The notes: a model not told the origin generated them from the letters alone. Numbered from the stretch's first letter, positions 50,834 through 62,819 are shown. The stretch: DNA of 64,000 nucleotides from Bdellovibrionales bacterium (GCA_027317865.1 DAHVQG010000010.1:45627-109626), one strand, 5' to 3'. Numbers and translations: made by a program.

Positions 50834-52138
50834 ATGAATAAAGGCACAAACTCATACGGCAACTTGTGTTGCAGTTTTTGTGGTAAAAGCCAAAAAGAAG
50901 TTAAAAAGTTGATCGCGGGTCCGGGCGTTTATATTTGTGATGAATGCATCGATCTGTGCAATGACATCATCACTGAAGAAAAAGAGCGCGAAGACGTCGC
51001 CAAGCACAATCTTACAGTTCCTAAACCAGTCGATATCAAGGCCTTTCTCGATGATTATGTAATTGGCCAGGACACGGCGAAAAAATCCCTCGCGGTTGCG
51101 GTTCACAATCATTACAAAAGGATCAATAGTTCGCGAAATCGCAAGAAAGACGAAGTTGAAATAGCAAAATCAAACATTCTTTTGATTGGGCCAACCGGCT
51201 CCGGAAAAACTTTGCTTGCCCAGACGATCGCGAAAATTTTAAATGTTCCGTTTGCCATGGCCGACGCTACGGCATTAACCGAAGCAGGCTACGTCGGCGA
51301 AGATGTTGAAAATGTCGTGCTCAATCTTTTGCAGGCATCTGATTACGATGTGGAAAAATGTAAGAAGGGCGTAATTTATATCGATGAGATCGACAAGATT
51401 TCACGCAAAGCCGAAAACCCTTCAATTACCCGCGATGTCAGTGGCGAGGGGGTGCAGCAAGCGCTTCTGAAAATATTAGAGGGTACAATCGCAAATTTGC
51501 CGCCCAAAGGCGGGCGCAAGCATCCGCAGCAAGAGTTCATTCAAATTGACACGACGAATATTTTATTTATTTGCGGCGGTGCATTTGTCGGTCTTGATAA
51601 AGTCATAGAAAACCGGCTTACGAGCCGCAGTCTGGGTATTCACGCCGATATTAAGACCAAAGCCGAGAAAAACAGTGAAGGTGATAATATTTTACGAAAA
51701 GTCGAGCCGGACGATCTCGTTCGTTTTGGACTTATCCCGGAATTCATTGGCCGGCTGCCGGTGCTAGCGGTTCTTGATCAGTTAACTGAGGCCGCGCTCG
51801 TTGATATTTTAGTGCGTCCTAAAAATGCACTCACAAAACAGTTCCAAAAACTCATGGATTATGAGAATTGTCATCTGTCTTTCACTGAACCCGCATTGCG
51901 AGAGATTGCGCGCGAGGCACTCAAGCGCAACACGGGCGCGCGCGGTTTGCGTAGTGTGATTGAGCACGCGATGATGGATGTGATGTACGAAATTCCTTCC
52001 AAGGGCAACGTGAAGGAATGTATAATTGATGAAGGGACAATTCTCCGCGGAGAGAAACCGAAACTAGTTATTAGAACTGAGCGCGAGATGGCGCAATTGG
52101 CAACCGCAAAACCGGATGACTCAGCCGAAAGCGCCTAA
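50834..52138 (+). CDS. clpX: ATP-dependent Clp protease ATPase
   Basis: CSFC...C..C Zn domain, [34 protein letters not shown]. Confidence 0.97.
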
Positions 52139-52186: not shown

Positions 52187-54634
52187 ATGGCATCGAACAC
52201 ACAGAAACTTCCACTATTACCGTTACGCGACTTAATTATTTTTCCGCACATGATGATGCCGCTTTTTGTCGGGCGAGAAAAAAGCATCAACGCGCTTGAA
52301 GAGGCGATGACAAAGCAAACCGATATCGTACTTGCGGCCCAAAAAGATCCGAAAGCCAATGCCCCCCAACCTGAAGAAATTTACGGCGTTGGAACAATCG
52401 GCACAATAATTCAGCTTCTGCGGCTGCCCGACGGCACGGTTAAAGTTCTTGTCGAAGGTAAGAAACGTGCCCTAATCAAAAACTATTTGCAAACCGAGGG
52501 TGTGTTTTTTGTCGAAATCGAAGAGATGAAAGAAAACATTGCCAATGAAGTCGAAGCGCGCGCCTTGGTGCGCTCGATTAAGGCGACTTTTGAAACCTAC
52601 GTAAAACTCAATAAGCGCATTCCACCCGAAGTTTTGATGCGCGTGTCAACCATTGAAGAAATTGGCGAGCTTGGGGATATCATTGTTGCGCAACTCAACC
52701 TGAAGCTTGAAGACAAACAGGGCATTCTTGAAATCACCGACCCGGGTAAACGCCTTGAAGAACTCCTCAATCTCATGACCGGTGAAATTGAAATTCTTGA
52801 AGTGGAGCGCAAAATTCGTGGTCGCGTGAAAAAGCAAATGGAGCGGTCACAAAAAGAATACTATCTGAACGAGCAGATGCAGGCGATACAAAAAGAACTT
52901 GGTGAAAAGGACGATTACCAGGCCGAACTTGATGAATTGAGCGAGCGGCTTGAAGAAAAGAAGATGGCCGACGAGGCAAAAAAGAAAGTAAAAAAAGAAA
53001 TCAAAAAATTGAAAATGATGTCGCCGATGTCGGCCGAAGCGGCGGTTGTTCGAAATTATATCGATTGGATGCTCGATTTGCCGTGGGCTAATTACGCAAA
53101 AGAAAAACACGACATAGAAGAAGCTAAGCGTATTTTAGATGACGACCACTGGGGCCTTGAAAAGGTAAAAGAGCGAATTCTAGAACATTTAGCCGTGCAG
53201 TCGCTTAACAATAAATTACGTGGTCCGATTCTTTGTCTTGTCGGCCCGCCAGGCGTTGGTAAAACTTCTCTTGCGCGCTCGATTGCGCGTTCACTGAACA
53301 GGCCGTTTTCGCGCATTTCTCTTGGCGGCGTTCGCGATGAGGCTGAAATTCGCGGCCATCGTAAAACTTATGTGGGAGCTATGCCAGGCAAGATCATTCA
53401 AGCGATGCGAAAAAGCGAATATGGCAATCCGCTGCTTTTACTCGACGAAATCGATAAGATGAGCATGGATTTTCGCGGCGACCCGAGTTCCGCACTCCTA
53501 GAAGTGTTAGACCCGGAGCAAAATTGCAATTTTCAAGATCATTACTTAGAAGTGGATTATGATCTTTCGCAGGTGATGTTCGTCACGACGGCAAATTCCC
53601 TGCATCCGGTGCCGCGTCCGCTTATTGACCGGATGGAGATCATTCAACTTGAGGGGTACATCGAAGACGAAAAGTTTCATATTTGCCAAAAATATTTAGT
53701 TCCGAAACAGATCGAGTTGCACGGGCTTAAAGATTACAAAATTAATTTTACGCCTTCGGCAATTCGCGAGGTCATTCGATCCTACACGCGAGAAGCGGGC
53801 GTTCGAAATTTAGAACGTCAAATTGCTACGGTCTGCCGAAAACTCGCAAAAGAGATCGTGACCGAAAAGCTCAAAAGCGAGCACAAAAACGGCAAGCGCG
53901 CCAAAATATTAAAGGCGAGCATGAAACCGATTCAGGTTACCCCGGCAAAAGTGACGGAACTTTTGGGCCCGGACAAAAACCGGTTTGGCAAAATCGAGGC
54001 GCAAAGCGAAATCGGCCTGACCAATGGTCTAGCGTGGACAGAAGTTGGCGGGGATCTTCTGGTTGTTGAAGTGTCTACGGTACCGGGCAAAGGCAAATTC
54101 ACAATTACAGGCCAACTAGGCGACGTGATGAAAGAATCTTGTGCGGCGGCAATGAGTTATGTGCGGTCGCGCGGTCCGCTGTTTGGATTTGATAAAGAAA
54201 TCTACGCCAATTTGGACGTACACATTCACGTGCCTGAGGGAGCTATTCCAAAAGATGGACCGTCTGCCGGGGTTGCCATTACAACAAGTATTGTTTCGTC
54301 AATGACGAAAATCCCTGTGAAGAAGACGGTGGCAATGACGGGCGAGGTGACGTTGCGGGGCCGCGTGCTTGCCATTGGCGGGTTACGCGAAAAGATATTA
54401 GCGGCTCATCGCGGCGGAATTAAAATGGTGATCATTCCGAAAGAAAACGAGAAGGATCTGAAAGATATTCCCAAACAAGTTTTGAAAGACGTTAAAGTTG
54501 TTCTAGTTGATCATGTGGACCAAGTATTGGTGAACGCTTTAGAAATTCGTAATCCGCGAGAGCTATTTAAATCACGCGGCGAGCGCTCACTTGGAATACG
54601 TGCGCAATATCAAGGTTCATCGTTGCAACATTAA
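52187..54634 (+). CDS. lon: Lon protease
   Basis: [43 protein letters not shown]. Confidence 0.97.
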
Positions 54635-54728: not shown

Positions 54729-55856
54729 TTGCACACGCTGCCAGCCGATAACAAATTGAATGACAGTCTGGAATCGTTGACCGAGGTTGGTAAACTTTAT
54801 GCTGACCGCTGCGATTTCAAGACGGCCGAGGGTTTTTTTACTCGCGCAGCCGACGGCTATTTGAGCAAAAAAGATTTTGCGAATTATCTGCGATGTATCA
54901 ATCGACTTTTGACATTATATGCGGAAATGGAAAATCATTCCGCGATAGACGGGCTTAAAGAAAAACTCCAAGAGCTCATGCAAAAAGAAAAAGTGAGCCT
55001 TGATTCTCGCACATATTACAGTCTAGGACTGTGCGCTTCTTATAAGGGACAACACAAAACAGCCCTTGAATATCTTGAAAAATCACTGGCCCTGGCTCTC
55101 GCGGCTGACGACAAAGAAAGCATTTGCTACGCCATTAGCGGCATATCGATTATTTATACGGCACTTGGCCGCTTCGAAGATGCCCTTAAAGAAATCTACA
55201 ATTTGCAGGTCTTTTTTCAGGTTTTGCCGATGCCGGAGCTTCGACTTTCGAGTCAAATCATGAACGGCCATATTTTGCGCGAAATGGGCAAGTACGAACA
55301 GGCGCTTGAGATTTTTTGGAAGTGCTACGAAGAGTTACGCGATCAAAAAAACCTCTATTATTTTATTTTGCTCCTCTATGCCATGGGGGTAACTTATCTG
55401 GAGTCTGGCGATCATGATTTGGCGCGCATGTATTTAATGCTCGCTAAAAGCAGTGCTGACCCTGAAAATCTTCGCTACTTTACCGGTAAAGTTGAAAAGC
55501 AGCTTGCCGAGATCGGTGATGTTAAACTTGTCGACTACGATTTGGTTTTTGACGCCGTCAATAAGCAAATCACCGAGAAAAAACGGGGCAAAGTTGATTT
55601 TAAAAATCAGTTCATTCTTCTCGATTTGCTGAGACTGTTCATGAAAACTCCGGGAGAAGTGCATTCCAAAGAAACAATTGTTGAAAAGATTTGGAAGCAA
55701 AGCTATGACCCAAGGGTTCATGACAATAAGTTGTATGTGACGATTAAGCGGCTGCGAAAGATGATTGAGCCGGATTTTGATAAACCGAAATATATTTTTA
55801 GAGCAAAGAACGGGTATTATTTAAACAAAAACGCGCGCGTTTTGCTGCAAAAGTAG
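54729..55856 (+). CDS. TPR plus OmpR-type winged-helix transcriptional regulator
   Basis: TPR helices then SKE.IV..IW...YDP..HDN..YVTIKRLR..IEP.......I.....GY; TTG start. Confidence 0.82.
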   Translation: MHTLPADNKLNDSLESLTEVGKLYADRCDFKTAEGFFTRAADGYLSKKDFANYLRCINRLLTLYAEMENHSAIDGLKEKLQELMQKEKVSLDSRTYYSLGLCASYKGQHKTALEYLEKSLALALAADDKESICYAISGISIIYTALGRFEDALKEIYNLQVFFQVLPMPELRLSSQIMNGHILREMGKYEQALEIFWKCYEELRDQKNLYYFILLLYAMGVTYLESGDHDLARMYLMLAKSSADPENLRYFTGKVEKQLAEIGDVKLVDYDLVFDAVNKQITEKKRGKVDFKNQFILLDLLRLFMKTPGEVHSKETIVEKIWKQSYDPRVHDNKLYVTIKRLRKMIEPDFDKPKYIFRAKNGYYLNKNARVLLQK

Positions 55857-56458: not shown

Positions 56459-56495
56459 AATAAAAAGGCGGGGATTATCTTCCCGCCTTTTTATT
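56459..56495. terminator. Bidirectional rho-independent terminator
   Basis: AATAAAAAGGCGGG / CCCGCCTTTTTATT inverted repeat. Confidence 0.85.
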
Positions 56496-56710: not shown

Positions 56711-56836
56711 ATGGGGTCTAGAAAACAACTTGATCAGTTGGCCGATGAATTGCCTTCAAATCAAAAGCGTTTGCGAGTGATCAGGCAAGATCGAATAAAC
56801 GTCGAAGACATGGATTGTCATCATGAAATCGTCTAG
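56711..56836 (+). CDS. 41-aa leader ORF MGSRKQLDQLADELPSNQKRLRVIRQDRINVEDMDCHHEIV
   Basis: Read manually; GGAGGAG RBS; its TAG overlaps the AGGAGG RBS of the next gene. Confidence 0.6.
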   Translation: MGSRKQLDQLADELPSNQKRLRVIRQDRINVEDMDCHHEIV

Positions 56837-56848
56837 GAGGTAATAAAA

Positions 56849-58366
56849 ATGGCATCTGATGTTGGCCAAATTTTTAAAATCGGCAAGGATCAGGAATCGC
56901 TGGTTAAGCCCATACAATATCGAGAAGATCGCATTGCAATTCCGCCTGAGATCAACTCGTCAGTGAATTTCGAAAACTTTTATGGAGAGCCGAATACGGG
57001 TCGATTGGTGAATATATCCAGATTTGGCCTTTGTTTCGAAATAAACGATCAAGACTCGCTCGCCGGCGTGAACACGAAAGTTTCGAAATTCGTTGCTACG
57101 GTTGGTGATACTCAGATCTATTCAGGTGATGTCACCATCGTCGGTGAATACGGCTCAAAATCGGGTTCCGTTATGTATGGCGCGGTCGTTGAAACCTCAA
57201 CGATTGACGTCGATCAGGTAGCCGCGATCATTGACCTGAACAGCAACATCGACTTTTTAAGAACAACAAAAAAAGTTTTGGAGATTTCAGAGTTGGTAAG
57301 GCCGGAATTCAAAATTCTTGTTGCGGATTTGAATACGCTCTTTCAAGACCTCAAAGCGAAGCTTTTACTTGAGCAAGAGCGCGTAACAAAACTGGGCAGA
57401 ACAGAGCAACAGAAGGCGAGACTGGAAGAACACGCTATATCGCTCGCGCTATCGCTATACCGCGAAGAGTTTCATAAAATATTTAGCAGCTTTAAAGCGA
57501 TCACCGATGGTTTTTCAGGCGACGAGACAGTTCTGCATAAACAGTATTTTCGGGCAAACTTTCAGCACCTCGTTGAGGGCGCGCCGTTTTTAAATCGTGC
57601 GCAAACTAAACCTTTGGGTTATGCGGGTGACTACGGTCTGATGGTCATGCTTTACGAATATCATGACGTAGGTAAAGACTTATTTGGCAAGTTTTTTCAT
57701 CGGCTTGGGTGCAATGAACCGGCGGCGCTTGCAAATAAAAATAGAGTTGAATACATCGGGGATTTGTTGATTGAGAATTACAACTCCATTGACGGTGCTG
57801 GGCAAAAAAAGGTCGACCCATTTAAGATTACGTCTGTTGCCTGCGGTCCGGCACGGGAAATCCAAATATTTCTCGACGCCGTAGAAAAGCGTTCGGCACC
57901 GGTTGAAATTGTGCTCATCGATCAGGAGAAGAGCGCGCTGGACCACGCGACCGAGCGATTAAAGACGTCGAACCTCGGAAAGCCCGTTAGGGTAAAAACT
58001 TTCGCAGAAGATGCCGTGCTTGGAATAATTAAAGAACGCGCATTTGTACAAGAAATCATAGGCAGTAGGTTCATTATATGCTCCGGCCTCTTTGACTATC
58101 TCAGCAACCGAGTCGCAGCGAGACTACTAGAGAGCTTGTACGCGCTTGTCGCGGCCGGGGGCACACTCATTGTCGGCAATGTCTCCAAGCAAAATCCAGA
58201 TCGCTTTAGCATGGACTATTTTATGGATTGGAATTTAATTTTGCGTGATGCAAACGACCTACGCAGACTCGCCGCAGGTGTTACTGCAAAGTGGCCAGAG
58301 GCCAAGGTCGAAGTTGCATCTGAGTCGTTGGGAATAAACTTATTTTTGCACATAACTAAGAAGTGA
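56849..58366 (+). CDS. PhcB-like class I SAM-dependent methyltransferase with N-terminal PilZ-like domain
   Basis: R...KPLGYAGDY..M..LY, SVACGPAREI, LIDQE, SGLFDYL, GG.L.VGN, MD..MDWNLI.R; N-terminal REDR...NISRFG; family assignment from recalled motifs. Confidence 0.75.
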   Translation: MASDVGQIFKIGKDQESLVKPIQYREDRIAIPPEINSSVNFENFYGEPNTGRLVNISRFGLCFEINDQDSLAGVNTKVSKFVATVGDTQIYSGDVTIVGEYGSKSGSVMYGAVVETSTIDVDQVAAIIDLNSNIDFLRTTKKVLEISELVRPEFKILVADLNTLFQDLKAKLLLEQERVTKLGRTEQQKARLEEHAISLALSLYREEFHKIFSSFKAITDGFSGDETVLHKQYFRANFQHLVEGAPFLNRAQTKPLGYAGDYGLMVMLYEYHDVGKDLFGKFFHRLGCNEPAALANKNRVEYIGDLLIENYNSIDGAGQKKVDPFKITSVACGPAREIQIFLDAVEKRSAPVEIVLIDQEKSALDHATERLKTSNLGKPVRVKTFAEDAVLGIIKERAFVQEIIGSRFIICSGLFDYLSNRVAARLLESLYALVAAGGTLIVGNVSKQNPDRFSMDYFMDWNLILRDANDLRRLAAGVTAKWPEAKVEVASESLGINLFLHITKK

Positions 58367-59805
58367 TTGTGGAAAAGCACATTGAAGGTCGCCTGCTCGA
58401 AGAAGAGCGACAAACAATCGTTCATCGAGTACTGATAGCAACAAAGTACATGGCGGTTCCACTTGTACTTTCTTTTAGCCTTGTCGATCACTTTTTTGCG
58501 CCAAAATTGTTTTGGCAATTTTTCTACCTTAGGCTGTTCATAATCCCAGTTGGGGCGTGCGCTTATTTTATGTACCGACTTAAGATTGTTAGGGAGCGCT
58601 TTTACGAATTGCCTGGTATTTTTGTTTGTCTTTTCTTGGGCCTATACAATGCCTATATGGCCATGGTAACCGGCGGGGCCGCGTCGCCATACTACGCCGG
58701 TCTCAACCTTGTCACGTTCGGCAGCCTATTTTTCTTGCCGTTCCGGAAGCGTTATATTGTTTTGATGTTCCTGGCTATTTACGGCCCGTATTTTGCGCTG
58801 CTTCCGTTTTTTACTGAGCATTTGAGCCTGAAGTATTTTGTACCAAACGTCGCATTTATGTTTTCCACTGGCTTCGTCGGCTTGATTGTCGCTTGGGTTA
58901 CGCGCGAAATGCGAAGGAAAGAGGTTGAGGCTAAAATTTCGCTCGAATTTGAATTGCAGAACAAGGATCGTATTATAAAAGCAAAGACGCAAGAGGCGAC
59001 AGAACTGGAGAAGCTTGCCATCCAATTTTCGCCACAAGTGATTAGTGCGATTAAATCCCAGCAAATTGACCTATCAAGTTCGATACGACAGGAAATTTCA
59101 TGTATCTTTATAGATCTTGAAAATTCAACATCAAGAAGCGCGCGAATAGACTATTCGATTTATTCAAGTCTTTTGCGGGAGTTTTTTTCGGATTGTGTGG
59201 AGATTTTGCTTTCGCATAATATTACTGTTGGCACGTATCTTGGGGATGGCCTTTTAGCATTTGCAAATGCCCCGCAAATGGTTCCAGAACATGCTAAAAT
59301 GGCAGTAGACTCGTGCCTGGATATTCTATCTCGTCATCACCAAAAGAGTAGCTATTATCGCGACAAGTGGCGAACTAACTTCAATGTTAGAATAGGTATT
59401 AATACCGGTTTTGCCGAGGTCGGCTTCTTCCCGAGTGCACAGCGTGGCACCTATACTGCGGTCGGCGAAGCTGTAAACCTCGCATCAAGGCTAATGACAA
59501 ACGCGCCCCCAAATTCGATCTGCGTGACAAGGGGCGTGCTTGTCAAAATGGGAGATAGCTTGAGCAACGTAGATGTCGAGTCACTTGGGACTTTCGATAA
59601 CATTAAGGGTTTTCAGGGCGAACTATACGATTTATTTTCGATTCGGAAAAAAGAGATGAAGCAAGATCGCTCACGCGACGCATGTCCACTTTGTGGTGGA
59701 AAGCTTGTGGCCATAAATGATCTCGGCGAGACCATTTTGGCTAGATGTATGAAATGCCGGTATACTGATCTCATCGACAAATCCAAATTCAGCAATGTAG
59801 CCTAG
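58363..59805 (+). CDS. Membrane-sensor class III adenylate/guanylate cyclase with C-terminal CxxC-CxxC Zn ribbon
   Basis: About 6 TMs with SPYYAGLNL; FIDLENST, LGDG, RIGINTG, YTAVGEAVNLASRL, IKG; CPLC...CMKC; GTGA overlap with the upstream stop. Confidence 0.88.
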   Translation: MIVEKHIEGRLLEEERQTIVHRVLIATKYMAVPLVLSFSLVDHFFAPKLFWQFFYLRLFIIPVGACAYFMYRLKIVRERFYELPGIFVCLFLGLYNAYMAMVTGGAASPYYAGLNLVTFGSLFFLPFRKRYIVLMFLAIYGPYFALLPFFTEHLSLKYFVPNVAFMFSTGFVGLIVAWVTREMRRKEVEAKISLEFELQNKDRIIKAKTQEATELEKLAIQFSPQVISAIKSQQIDLSSSIRQEISCIFIDLENSTSRSARIDYSIYSSLLREFFSDCVEILLSHNITVGTYLGDGLLAFANAPQMVPEHAKMAVDSCLDILSRHHQKSSYYRDKWRTNFNVRIGINTGFAEVGFFPSAQRGTYTAVGEAVNLASRLMTNAPPNSICVTRGVLVKMGDSLSNVDVESLGTFDNIKGFQGELYDLFSIRKKEMKQDRSRDACPLCGGKLVAINDLGETILARCMKCRYTDLIDKSKFSNVA

Positions 59806-60044
59806 TCCCACCTCACATGCCCTAAGTGGATGGATAATTAGCGAATGTAATAGTTCATATTAAATTTCAAATTAACATTAGTTAGCTAAAACGTCGCAGC
59901 TGTGGCTATGTAAAAAAGAGTAGCGCCAACGTTAAAAGTGGCAATGCTGCATAAAGAGATTTCAAAACTGAAAACCCATTCTAAACACATTGTATTTTCT
60001 ATGAGAACTCGGTTATTTATACGCTTGTTCTTTGGGGGATACTG

Positions 60045-61412
60045 GTGGGCAAGCGAAGGTCAATCTCATTAAAGACGAGAGCCCCAGACAGCTACGAAGC
60101 TGAATGGCTCGAATTTTCTAAAAAAAGTTTAAAAATTGGAATTATTCGCGCTGGTCTGCCGCTTTGGTTGGTATTCGGTATTGCCGATTACATATATGCT
60201 CCAGAAAAACTAGCTTTACTGCTAACTGTAAGGATATGCGTTGTTTGTTTAAGCGCCGTTTATCTTTGGTATGCATTGCGGGCCGAGACGAAGCGGTCTT
60301 TTACTCTGAGATACGTCGGCTTATTAGCATTTTACGGGCTTGCGATATTGTTTGTTACGTATCTCGTCGGGGATCCGCACAATACGTATTTTCTTGGCGA
60401 ATTTCTTGTGGCAATCGGGGCGTTTACGTTTGTGATTTTGCCCATCGGCTATTATGTGCTTGTTGCACTCATCATTTTTGTTCCAATTCTTGTTTATGCG
60501 ATTATTACACACATGGCGCAGGAGTATCCGTATAGTTTTACGGTTTTTTCGTTCACGAGCATCGGGATCATTTGGGTGTGTGGACATGTCCGGTCGTATT
60601 TAGAAGTGACTCGAGCGCAAGAATTTGAAGCTCGGCAAGCGCTTCGGCAGATTTTAGCCGACAAAGAGGTGGCTGTTCAAAAGCTTGCCGACCAAGTGTG
60701 CTCGCTCGGCGCACTTAACGAAGGGCAGGATCAAAGGAATGTTGAAAAAGTGGCACGCCAAGTGGCGCACGACATCCGTTCGCCGCTTTCGGCAATGAAT
60801 GCGATTGCAAAAAAGGTCGAACACATATCGCCTGAACTGGCTGACCTTCTTAAAATGTCGTCGAAGAGGATCAACGATATTGCTGATTCATTGTCGGCGC
60901 CTTTGCTTAAGAAGTGCGATACGAGTCAAGTCACCGAAGTCAAAGAGGCAATATCAACCGTGGTCAAAGAAAAACTATTGCGAGTGAATCGTGACCGGAT
61001 TCAAATGAAAGTCGACGTGAGTCAGGATTTGCCGCGTTTGCCAATTTCACCGAGTAATTTTGAACGGGTGATTTCGAATATCACAGAGAATGCAATAGAA
61101 GCGATTAATGGTAGCGGAGTGATTGAAATTCGCGCGCAAAAGGCGCGGTCTAACGGTTCAGTGGCACAAATTGAAATACGCGATAATGGCTGCGGTATTT
61201 CGCCCGAAAATTTAAAAAAAATAGGTCACTACGGTTTCACTCACGGCAAGGCAAAAGGATCGGGCTTGGGTCTTGCTTATGCACGAGAAGTTATTGAATC
61301 CGTGTCGGGAAAAATTAAAGTTTCAAGCGAAATCGGCAAGTACACTTCGGTGGTGGTTGAAATTCCGACCGCTAGTTCGGTCGGCCCTCTTGGCGCGTTA
61401 CGACTGCAATAG
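60045..61412 (+). CDS. Membrane sensor histidine kinase (PhcS-like sensor), no receiver domain
   Basis: About 6 TMs; H-box ARQVAHDIRSPL, N-box NITENAIEA, DNGCGI, GSGLGL. Confidence 0.88.
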   Translation: MGKRRSISLKTRAPDSYEAEWLEFSKKSLKIGIIRAGLPLWLVFGIADYIYAPEKLALLLTVRICVVCLSAVYLWYALRAETKRSFTLRYVGLLAFYGLAILFVTYLVGDPHNTYFLGEFLVAIGAFTFVILPIGYYVLVALIIFVPILVYAIITHMAQEYPYSFTVFSFTSIGIIWVCGHVRSYLEVTRAQEFEARQALRQILADKEVAVQKLADQVCSLGALNEGQDQRNVEKVARQVAHDIRSPLSAMNAIAKKVEHISPELADLLKMSSKRINDIADSLSAPLLKKCDTSQVTEVKEAISTVVKEKLLRVNRDRIQMKVDVSQDLPRLPISPSNFERVISNITENAIEAINGSGVIEIRAQKARSNGSVAQIEIRDNGCGISPENLKKIGHYGFTHGKAKGSGLGLAYAREVIESVSGKIKVSSEIGKYTSVVVEIPTASSVGPLGALRLQ

Positions 61413-61710
61413 GTTTTTCTACCGTGTCGATTATTTCAAGAAGATCACTCCACTGCTTTTGATCTGGAAGGTTCGCGCCGCAGGGCCACTTCATGGTAAC
61501 ATACCAGGACAGATTTCGGATCACGTTCTCATGCCCGGCCCTATCCGTTAACTTCGCGGCGGCATTTAGCAAATCAACTAAAAGATGTTCGTCATGAATC
61601 TGATCACGCGCGAGGTCGTCGATCCAGGGCATTTCTTGATCGGCTCCGCTTTTCTCGAACAGCAGTCTTTTTCGCCAACGGTACGCAGTTAAGTTCGTCA
61701 TCATTAACAC
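61372..61710 (-). CDS. Hypothetical protein
   Basis: 112-aa ORF with globular-looking composition filling the gap; 41-nt convergent overlap with the kinase. Confidence 0.4.
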   Translation of the reverse strand: MLMMTNLTAYRWRKRLLFEKSGADQEMPWIDDLARDQIHDEHLLVDLLNAAAKLTDRAGHENVIRNLSWYVTMKWPCGANLPDQKQWSDLLEIIDTVEKPIAVVTRQEGRPN

Positions 61711-61949
61711 CCTATTTCAATAGCCGGGCCAAACGAGGCGCATTAAAAGTTACCGCCAGATTTAATTAAAGTTTGTACAGGTTAAAAAGATAACCCCTTG
61801 AGCGTCGCGTTCTTAAATTTTGTTCCACAGTACTAGATTGTGGACAATAATGGCGGCAGCAAAACCTATTGTGGGCGCAAGCCCAAGCATTCAAGCGGTG
61901 TGGACATATTTATCGGGCACTGTTATACGGTAAGCACTGGAGAACACAC

Positions 61950-62819
61950 ATGGTAAAAACCAAAGCAAATCACAAAGTTGTACAAATCGCTTTTATGGCG
62001 CTCTTACTTTCGGCGCTTTCAGGCTGCGTGTCTCTTGGAACAGAGCACAAATTATTAAAGAAGTACCACGCGACAAAAGCGAATCTTACCAGCTGTGCGG
62101 CCCAGTCGGCTTCGCAACAGAAGCAGATTCAAGCGTTGAAAAGTAAAATTCAAAATGAAGAAGTGATTGTTTCAAATTTAGAATCGAAATTGGGCGAGTC
62201 AAAAAGTGCGAAACTCAGGCTCGAAGGTAACGTCGCGAAAATGAAGCAGGCGCTCGAGGCCCTTAAGCAAGAACAACTAGAGGCTCAAAAGCGGATAAAT
62301 GAATTTCGTGAGCTGACGGCTAAATTTCAATCTCTCATTAACACCGGCAAACTCACCGTCAAAATTGTAGATGGTCAAATGGTGGTTGCGATGTCTACGG
62401 ACGTTTTATTTCACTCTGGGTCAGCGCGTTTATCGAAGGCAGGTCAGGCGGCCATTAAACAAGTCACATCGCTTTTGGTCTCCGTTCCAAATCACAATTT
62501 TCAAATCGAAGGGTTTACTGACAACATGCCGATTCGAACGGCCTTGTTTCCGTCGAATTGGGAGCTAGCCTCGGCACGCGCGCTAACAGTGCTTAAAACA
62601 ATGCTCAAAGCAGGTATGCCGCCAGGTCGCGTGAGTGCGGCAAGCTTTGGTGATACGCATCCCGTACAACCGAATACGACCAATGCCGGCCGTGCGGCAA
62701 ATCGACGAATTGAAATTGTCGTTGTGCCGGACCTTTCAGATCTACCGGGATATGCGGAATTAAAGAAATTATCAGGTCAAAAAAGTACGGATAAACAAAC
62801 AAAGCCAACTAAAAACTGA
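61950..62819 (+). CDS. OmpA/MotB-domain coiled-coil lipoprotein
   Basis: GGAG RBS, lipobox LSGC, coiled coil, LF.SGSA.L, IEG.TDN.PI, NWEL...RA, GRAANRRIEI. Confidence 0.88.
   Translation: MVKTKANHKVVQIAFMALLLSALSGCVSLGTEHKLLKKYHATKANLTSCAAQSASQQKQIQALKSKIQNEEVIVSNLESKLGESKSAKLRLEGNVAKMKQALEALKQEQLEAQKRINEFRELTAKFQSLINTGKLTVKIVDGQMVVAMSTDVLFHSGSARLSKAGQAAIKQVTSLLVSVPNHNFQIEGFTDNMPIRTALFPSNWELASARALTVLKTMLKAGMPPGRVSAASFGDTHPVQPNTTNAGRAANRRIEIVVVPDLSDLPGYAELKKLSGQKSTDKQTKPTKN

Follow-up and report, generated by a model that had tools for sequence, protein, structure and literature searches.

The 64,000-nt stretch of Bdellovibrionales bacterium DNA analysed here (GCA_027317865.1 DAHVQG010000010.1:45627-109626; hereafter the window, with coordinates counted from its start) contains at positions 56711-61412 four open reading frames (ORFs) on the plus strand: a small ORF, an S-adenosylmethionine (SAM)-dependent methyltransferase gene of the phcB family (56849..58366, 505 aa, putative signal synthase), a gene for a membrane class III nucleotide cyclase (58363..59805, 480 aa, putative receptor) and a gene for an orphan sensor histidine kinase (60045..61412, 455 aa, second putative receptor). 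A bidirectional intrinsic terminator (56459..56495; 16-bp stem with A and U tracts) terminates the upstream gene and delimits the module on its 5' side; its folding energy is -22.4 kcal/mol (z -5.0), and none of 200 shuffled sequences was equally stable. The GTG start codon of the cyclase gene (58363) overlaps the TGA stop codon of the methyltransferase gene (ending at 58366) in the sequence GTGA, as noticed in the original prediction made from the DNA alone, and the cyclase is translationally coupled to the methyltransferase. That prediction spoke of a compact cluster after a strong terminator. The common strand and the terminator are indeed there; the compactness is incomplete, as 239 nt separate the cyclase and kinase genes. 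No terminator-like hairpin was found in this gap (z +0.59).

On sequence comparison, the methyltransferase is a full-length PhcB-family protein. A homology search gave 140 relatives, and 21 of the 120 listed bear the JGI name of the PhcB orthologue, in KEGG the [quoted passage not shown]. The protein aligns with a 468-aa protein of Paraburkholderia graminis over residues 34-499 (26% identity, E 2e-45) and with a 463-aa Cupriavidus PhcB orthologue (P0171) over residues 34-503 (E 9e-42). The homology thus takes in, besides the Rossmann domain, the beta domain at the N-terminus and the region of long helices, and the proposed relationship to PhcB goes beyond the generic SAM fold: the non-catalytic N-terminal 300 residues align too. 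In a translated search of plasmids, the only full-length match to the methyltransferase was the gene on P. graminis pPHS1_P, where it is followed by genes for a kinase (445 aa), a receiver (134 aa) and a receiver with an unknown C-terminus (344 aa). This order matches the published layout of the phcBSRQ operon (PMC6989110, PMC7694676), and the Paraburkholderia protein was used as the bridge to PhcB. PhcB is given there as 464-468 aa long (PMC7694676), PhcQ is described as a receiver with an uncharacterised C-terminal part, and Phc homologues are named for Ralstonia, Cupriavidus and Paraburkholderia (PMC6989110). The bridge protein is 64-92% identical to 120 listed Burkholderiales proteins, Cupriavidus included, one of which bears the PhcB product name in NCBI.

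The motifs KPLGYAGDY, VACGPARE, GLFDYL and DWNL, which had drawn attention to this gene, are all present in the translation, and a family alignment of 12 members shows most of their residues to be invariant or nearly so (K254, P255, G257, Y258, G260, D261; C332, G333, E337; L414, D416, Y417; W461). Within the Rossmann domain C332, G333, E337 and D358 are invariant in this alignment. The AlphaFold model of the methyltransferase (predicted local distance difference test score, pLDDT, 84) comprises a beta-barrel (residues 37-114), helices (121-315) carrying KPLGYAGDY and a Rossmann domain (325-503); compared as a whole, it is closest among solved folds to O- and C-methyltransferases of small molecules. 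The class I (Rossmann) methyltransferase domain (residues ~325-503, 57821..58357) is delimited by the secondary structure of the model, by the invariant residues and by a Methyltransf_12 match at residues 330-440. The latter is sub-threshold (25.3 bits; cut-off 30) and the only Pfam match to the methyltransferase; NCBIfam has no family for it, and a search against PDB sequences gave no match at E 1. The family itself is large: a profile of the 12 members matched 7,051 cluster representatives at E <=0.001, 5,138 at 1e-10 and 2,594 at 1e-30 among 1.84 billion.

The coupling of the methyltransferase to a membrane receptor is conserved. When one genome per species was scanned, at least 595 confirmed loci were obtained, the best 80 of which (mostly from Verrucomicrobiota, Myxococcota and Bdellovibrionota) were used. 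At 72 of these 80 loci a receptor with a MASE8-type membrane domain (see below) is encoded directly downstream on the same strand; its output is a kinase in 65 cases and a cyclase in three, and in four no output domain was detected or the gene is cut by a contig end. One locus has the receptor one gene further on (L070), one is not assessable owing to a contig end (L042), and six have no receptor (L003, L020, L031, L036, L046, L053). The partner in Verrucomicrobiota and Myxococcota has ~890 aa and consists of the membrane domain, HisKA-HATPase, a receiver and a second HisKA-HATPase. Note that this protein (L005, L008, L044 and most other Verrucomicrobiota/Myxococcota loci) looks like a natural PhcS-PhcR fusion; PhcR is described as a kinase/response-regulator hybrid (PMC7694676).

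As the three cyclase partners (L001, L002, L004) all come from Bdellovibrionota or Oligoflexia, 401 sampled Bdellovibrionota genomes were surveyed. The methyltransferase was found at 67 places in 64 of them. The cyclase query matched 89 genomes at E <=1e-20, and 59 places spanning both the membrane and the catalytic part were kept, matches to the catalytic part only being left out. At 49 of the 67 methyltransferase places the gene immediately downstream, in the same orientation, encodes a membrane cyclase (3-181 nt between match ends), and the methyltransferase is correspondingly upstream of 49 of the 59 full-length cyclases, the window being counted in both cases. The 49 paired genomes, many of them complete, span nine families. 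The predicted conservation of the methyltransferase-receptor pair is thus borne out in the wide scan as well as within the phylum, and the sequences suggest that the cyclase-coupled Phc-type module is widespread in Bdellovibrionota and, as far as our searches reach, undescribed.

Twenty of the surveyed Bdellovibrionota regions were inspected in detail. Some variants of the pair deserve mention. In G349 a 219-aa ORF with the MASE8-type domain only, perhaps a truncated cyclase, follows the methyltransferase gene (L103:7571-8230), and in one genome (G389:C93:7576-8955) the cyclase match lies within a 1002-aa open frame with one internal TAG. In G322 the PhcB-like gene is followed by a different, soluble-looking cyclase of 1158 aa (L102:3785-7261) with PilZ, FeeM-like N-acyl amino acid synthase (GNAT), GAF and class III cyclase domains.

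What links the two putative receptors in the window is their N-terminal part. The ~220 N-terminal residues of cyclase and kinase are homologous (E 3e-12; 27% identity across 191 residues). Over its entire length the kinase can be aligned with the PhcS-like kinase of Paraburkholderia (E 2e-13), and the membrane part of the cyclase matches the same protein weakly (E 0.002). An iterated membrane-domain profile matches the cyclase (residues ~7-222, 58381..59028) with an E value of 3.5e-61 and the kinase (residues ~16-219, 60090..60701) with 1.8e-35; altogether it matches 64 of the 66 sequences tested, a set made up of the 64 downstream partners longer than 400 aa and the cyclase and kinase of the window. 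The exceptions, two partners lacking the membrane domain, are a fatty-acid hydroxylase (L036) and an FAD oxidoreductase (L070). Within the genome to which the window belongs (2.65 Mb, 99% complete) the profile matches the cyclase and the kinase only, and there is a single PhcB-like gene, which adjoins the genes of these two proteins.

We designate the domain as MASE8-type, and this link rests on precomputed annotation, the iterated profile and intermediate sequences. Precomputed Pfam assignments place MASE8 (PF20968.4) and Guanylate_cyc on the window cyclase itself (P0241) and on 60 of 120 listed cyclase homologues; Pseudobdellovibrio exovorus, too, encodes a homologue of this cyclase (P0355). 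A local Pfam scan found MASE8 in 11 of the 64 partner N-termini at E <=0.01 (only L074 above the curated cut-off) and, below threshold, in the Paraburkholderia kinase (E 0.00096); the same scan did not find MASE8 in either membrane domain of the window at E 5. L074 in turn matches the membrane part of the window cyclase at E 8.8e-13, which makes a two-step link to MASE8. Cyclase and kinase thus share one MASE8-type membrane domain, judged by these comparisons the same as in PhcS-like kinases, which agrees with the expectation that both receptor N-termini would resemble PhcS. The kinase output typical of PhcS is absent from the coupled receptor, which has Guanylate_cyc instead, and is present in the kinase (60045-61412; Pfam HATPase_c, 73.8 bits).

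In a quick tree of the membrane domains, a branch with 100% support parts 59 kinase-type domains (Verrucomicrobiota, Myxococcota, Paraburkholderia) from 18 rows that comprise all 14 cyclase-type domains, the kinases of the window, G226 and L078 and the G349 fragment. In this tree the window kinase forms a pair with that of G226 (support 90; long branches), not with the neighbouring cyclase. A recent local duplication as the source of the sensor domain of the kinase is accordingly not supported; the tree is weak evidence, which hints that this domain is an old paralogue.

The C-terminal part of the coupled receptor is a class III cyclase domain. Pfam Guanylate_cyc (PF00211) scores 50.5 bits (cut-off 21.9), and the nearest solved relatives of the catalytic domain (residues ~226-430, 59038..59652) are the class IIIb cyclases CyaB from Pseudomonas aeruginosa (3r5g, E 5e-14) and CyaC from Spirulina (1wc1, E 3.5e-13). 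The alignment with these two structures was used to set the catalytic positions, and residues were counted over 18 orthologues. D251 and D295, which we take to be the metal-binding Asp residues, and R376, presumably the transition-state Arg, are found in all 18 orthologues; T365 (presumably the class IIIb Thr) and N372 (presumably the transition-state Asn) are each found in 16. The position four residues before the second metal Asp, which we take to hold the purine-specifying Lys, is Thr in the window (T291), and its column contains Lys in seven, Thr in eight, Ser in two and Asn in one of the 18 orthologues. The invariant Asp pair and Arg, together with the Asn and Thr kept in 16/18, argue for retained catalysis, and the cyclase is probably active, as far as its residues can tell. 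Its C-terminal tail (59683..59760) has a zinc-ribbon-like CxxC...CxxC pattern, which is largely conserved in the orthologue alignment; the zinc-ribbon family PF02150 is assigned there on three listed homologues. Besides this cyclase, the genome encodes two other class III cyclase domains and six cyclic nucleoside monophosphate (cNMP)-binding domains in five ORFs.

The N-terminal domain of the methyltransferase (residues ~25-114, 56921..57190) appears to add a further second messenger. This region was recognised from a domain model, fold matches and motifs. Modelled alone, it gave a pLDDT of 80.5, and the first ~30 Foldseek matches of residues ~25-134 in PDB were PilZ domains binding cyclic diguanylate (c-di-GMP), with TM-scores by query of 0.47-0.58. 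Among them are YcgR, PP4397, MrkH, Alg44, BcsA, VCA0042, PlzA, MotI and MapZ; the best was YcgR (5y6g, E 1.3e-4, TM-score by query 0.58). The c-di-GMP-binding motifs of PilZ domains are RxxxR and (D/N)xSxxG. Twelve Bdellovibrionota N-termini have in common R25-x-x-R28 and N55-x-S57-x-x-G60; in their alignment R28 and G60 are invariant and R25 and S57 are at least 90% conserved. The sequence N55-I-S57-R-F-G60 of the window fits the canonical second motif, and R25-E-D-R28 is one residue shorter than RxxxR. A relative (P0110) matches Pfam PilZ at E 1.9e-12. In the Burkholderiaceae proteins the RxxR arm is missing, and NLQRNS or NLQRKS stands at the position of NISRFG in the window protein. Neighbours in the ESM Atlas include clusters of PilZ-plus-methyltransferase proteins and a cluster of 469-aa proteobacterial proteins named "Regulatory protein". 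According to the models, the N-terminus of the methyltransferase thus has a PilZ fold with near-canonical c-di-GMP motifs, and signal synthesis is probably under c-di-GMP control through it. A further structural neighbour in the ESM Atlas, a cluster of 103 proteins (Thermodesulfobacteriota being commonest), has a cNMP-binding domain in the place of PilZ, fused to the same type of methyltransferase.

As for the substrate, some clues come from genes next to related methyltransferases. In a genome of the same genus (G325, L094:1569-5105) a 1178-aa fusion of a fatty-acyl-AMP ligase (AMP-binding), an acyl-CoA dehydrogenase and an acyl carrier protein (phosphopantetheine-binding) ends 13 nt before the PhcB-like gene; this fusion is absent from the window. 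A receptor-less PhcB-like paralogue (L100, L101, L104, L105 and L106; genus g21 and relatives) has a fatty-acid desaturase gene upstream and a gene for an SLT/lysozyme-like protein downstream, and at another locus a fatty-acid hydroxylase is encoded directly after the methyltransferase (L036:5469-6128). These lipid-metabolism neighbours fit a fatty-acid-derived substrate and do not identify it. Note also that three genomes (G313, G319, G385) carry both the receptor-less paralogue and a cyclase-linked copy, and that in L070 (7365-8024) the protein encoded directly after the methyltransferase, with the receptor one gene further, is FAD/NAD-binding and amine-oxidoreductase-like.

A PhcB relative directly before a cyclase, together with a kinase that has the matching sensor domain, implies that a lipid-type signal is probably translated into a cyclic nucleotide. 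We therefore favour, with a probability of roughly 60%, the interpretation that the locus is a Phc-type synthase-receptor module in which the output of the receptor has changed from histidine kinase to nucleotide cyclase. By analogy with PhcB, the substrate of the methyltransferase would be a small lipophilic carboxylate, most likely derived from a fatty acid, and its product a methyl ester able to permeate membranes. The MASE8-type domain of the cyclase would bind this product within the membrane and change cyclase activity in one direction or the other, so that an extracellular or membrane lipid signal, possibly a measure of cell density, would be converted into a cyclic nucleotide, probably cyclic AMP (cAMP). 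The five cNMP-binding proteins of the genome could read this nucleotide. The kinase, alone in the genome in sharing the sensor domain with the cyclase, would feed a parallel phosphorelay to a regulator, and the PilZ-fold N-terminus probably puts signal synthesis under the control of c-di-GMP.

Several points weigh against this interpretation or parts of it. The comparison with PhcB was made via the Paraburkholderia and Cupriavidus orthologues, not with Ralstonia PhcB (RSc2735) and PhcS (RSc2736) themselves, as Ralstonia is absent from the 120 listed Burkholderiales homologues and the plasmid collection gave only the Paraburkholderia copy; at 26% identity to Burkholderiaceae PhcB the substrate may differ. 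The Ralstonia model itself, in which PhcS senses the ester and phosphorylates PhcR, is said not to have been validated experimentally (PMC7694676). No PhcR-like or PhcQ-like regulator was found: Pfam detects no receiver domain in the flanking ORFs, in line with the original prediction of an orphan kinase, and a PhcQ-like query gives generic receiver matches only (query residues 3-154) in the genome. Eighteen of the 67 methyltransferase places have no adjacent same-strand cyclase at the cut-off used, and five of these are the paralogue without receptor; of the others, G346 and G196 do have a divergent membrane cyclase below the cut-off, and G030 and G187 have a cyclase close by on the opposite strand. 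Thr291, in a column with Lys in only seven of 18 orthologues, makes the product and even the activity of the cyclase uncertain. With respect to c-di-GMP, the first motif is RxxR rather than RxxxR, and Pfam PilZ (PF07238) gives no match in residues 1-137 of the window protein at E 0.01. Finally, among the loci examined a MASE8 kinase stands beside the pair in only one other (G226; 411 aa, convergent).

The kinase was accordingly rejected as a member of the conserved unit. In L001, L002 and L004 the pair is followed by genes on the opposite strand, and the conserved core thus consists of two genes; the same-genus genome G325 encodes a 631-aa kinase without the MASE8-type domain.

A more elaborate form of the cyclase-coupled reading is a circuit of three messengers, in which PilZ-bound c-di-GMP would switch on the synthesis of a fatty-acid methyl ester, possibly from 3-hydroxy fatty acids freed by the predator from prey lipid A, and the MASE8 anchor of the cyclase would sense the ester and pass it on as cAMP, so as to time life-cycle or group decisions across much of Bdellovibrionota. 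We regard this as a tentative proposal that is rather more likely to fail than to hold in all its steps.

Somewhat less probable, in our view, is a cell-autonomous role. Here the esterified fatty-acid intermediate, of the cell's own or of prey lipid A origin, would stay in the membrane of the producer, and MASE8 would read the metabolic or feeding state rather than density. The conserved pairing and the lipid context suit this explanation equally, as none of this evidence separates autocrine from intercellular action. Moreover, MASE-type domains have short loops and are believed to sense within the membrane, as put forward for the related MASE9 (bioRxiv 10.1101/2021.11.05.467447), and a private circuit would fit with the coupled translation of synthase and receptor. 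However, the characterised PhcB/PhcS pair is described as a diffusible quorum-sensing system (PMC7694676, PMC6989110), and nothing in the sequence speaks against export.

The next possibility concerns the output: the cyclase domain in the clade of the window may not be an adenylate cyclase, making cGMP or a pyrimidine cNMP instead or serving as a non-catalytic scaffold. The exchange of the purine-specifying Lys for Thr291 and the mixed composition of its column speak for it. Against it stand the invariant metal Asp pair and Arg, the presence of the Asn and the class IIIb Thr in 16 of 18 orthologues, and the canonical character of the Lys-bearing clade; we consider this explanation unlikely.

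Still less credible is the idea that the methyltransferase acts on the receptor protein, in a kind of adaptation by carboxyl methylation as between CheR and chemoreceptors, with no small-molecule signal involved. Its tight synteny with a membrane receptor would agree with this, some homologues have weak precomputed CheR (PF01739) matches (the L100 paralogue with E 0.00038, below the cut-off), and the PilZ protein MapZ, among the fold matches here, is known in complex with the methyltransferase CheR1 (5xly). Yet the enzyme is homologous over its full length to PhcB, which is reported to yield a small-molecule product (PMC7694676, PMC6989110), the nearest solved folds are small-molecule O- and C-methyltransferases, and the neighbouring lipid-metabolism genes would be left unexplained. 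A fortuitous adjacency of independent genes has next to no chance in view of the start/stop overlap, the pairing at 49/67 places over nine families and at 72/80 loci across several phyla, and the absence of the sensor domain from the rest of the genome; the conservation data already contradict it.

The cyclase-coupled Phc-type module resembles and departs from known systems in several respects. As in the Ralstonia PhcB-PhcS(-PhcR-PhcQ) system, to which the methyltransferase is homologous over its full length, a protein with a PhcS-type membrane domain is encoded directly downstream, and the window kinase aligns with the PhcS-like kinase of Paraburkholderia. Unlike in that system, the coupled receptor is a class III cyclase, no PhcR- or PhcQ-like partner was found, the identity is 26% (measured via Burkholderiaceae homologues), and the methyltransferase keeps near-canonical PilZ motifs (NISRFG, compared with NLQRNS in Burkholderiaceae). 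The pair in Verrucomicrobiota and Myxococcota has the same methyltransferase family and the same membrane domain directly downstream; its partner is a hybrid kinase of ~890 aa, whereas the window has a 480-aa cyclase, and the kinase and cyclase types of the membrane domain stand on either side of the 100%-supported branch of the quick tree. With CyaB and CyaC the window cyclase shares the metal Asp pair, the class IIIb Thr, the Asn and the Arg; it differs from them in Thr291 in place of the substrate Lys, in its N-terminal sensor and in the added C-terminal zinc ribbon. Compared with the PilZ receptors YcgR, PP4397, MrkH, Alg44, BcsA and MapZ, the N-terminal domain of the methyltransferase has the same fold and N-x-S-x-x-G in the expected place, but its first motif is RxxR rather than RxxxR and it is fused to a putative signal methyltransferase.

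The closest parallel on the receptor side is an engineered one. In the CqsS-Rv1625c chimera (Beltz et al. 2016), the lipophilic autoinducer CAI-1 is described to regulate cAMP synthesis at sub-micromolar concentrations (PMC4821796), which indicates that an autoinducer-gated cyclase is feasible. In both proteins a quorum-sensor-type multi-helix membrane domain without large periplasmic loops is joined to a class III cyclase; the chimera is synthetic and combines the CqsS domain with a class IIIa cyclase, whereas in the window protein, a natural one, a class IIIb-like cyclase is joined to a domain of the MASE8/PhcS type, with the gene of a candidate ligand synthase adjoining. The six-transmembrane anchors of class III cyclases have been proposed as orphan receptors (PMC4821796, PMC12414865), and the function of such membrane anchors is still called a blind spot (PMC12414865); evidence that they act as receptors comes chiefly from synthetic chimeras of quorum sensors and cyclases (PMC4821796). 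The locus would be a natural counterpart of the quorum-sensor/cyclase chimeras with a candidate ligand synthase in the same operon, and the question of the anchors thereby becomes directly testable in bacteria. If the reading with three messengers is true, the locus would provide the first natural case of a class III cyclase with an identifiable ligand for its multi-helix anchor, because the ligand synthase adjoins.

For Bdellovibrio, the four annotated cyclases of strain HD100 (bd0081, bd1116, bd2640, bd3072), as sources of cAMP, are described as the subject of ongoing work (PMC6717892). Our literature searches found no report of PhcB-like genes in connection with Bdellovibrio, no characterisation of Bdellovibrio cyclases and no phc-type system ascribed to Verrucomicrobiota; MASE8 came up in passing mention only, nothing was found on MASE7 or MASE6, and a cyclase-coupled Phc-type arrangement was not found described. 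We know of no cell-to-cell signal for Bdellovibrio-like bacteria, and the pair conserved in nine Bdellovibrionota families is a candidate for such a signal as well as for a source of cAMP. More generally, the Phc system of plant-pathogenic Burkholderiaceae belongs to a very large, mostly unstudied family (the 2,594 representatives at E <=1e-30) whose receptors have interchangeable outputs and whose synthases are often fused to second-messenger sensors.

The small ORF (56711..56836, plus strand, 41 aa) begins with an ATG at 56711 behind GGAGGAG and is doubtful as a gene. It is in the frame of the methyltransferase gene, from which one TAG and four codons separate it. It has no match in the 80 named loci and no Pfam family, and no counterpart was found upstream of the methyltransferase gene in relatives. 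Its sole similarity is weak (best E 0.004) and is to the RxxR arm that the methyltransferases of L109, L110 and L098 have at the N-terminus; indeed, it carries a VIRQDR segment resembling this arm as found in another clade. Although the original prediction counted it in the cluster, the small ORF was therefore rejected as a conserved component of the module; a 5' duplication or an old start region may have left it behind.

On the upstream side, the locus is preceded by genes for ClpX (50834-52138) and Lon (52187-54634) and, two genes upstream, for a 375-aa protein (54729-55856) with tetratricopeptide repeats and an OmpR/PhoB-type winged-helix DNA-binding domain, without a receiver. Downstream, a 112-aa ORF without a family match (minus strand, 61372-61710) shares 41 nt with the 3' end of the kinase gene and is followed by a gene for an OmpA/MotB-like protein (61869-62819).

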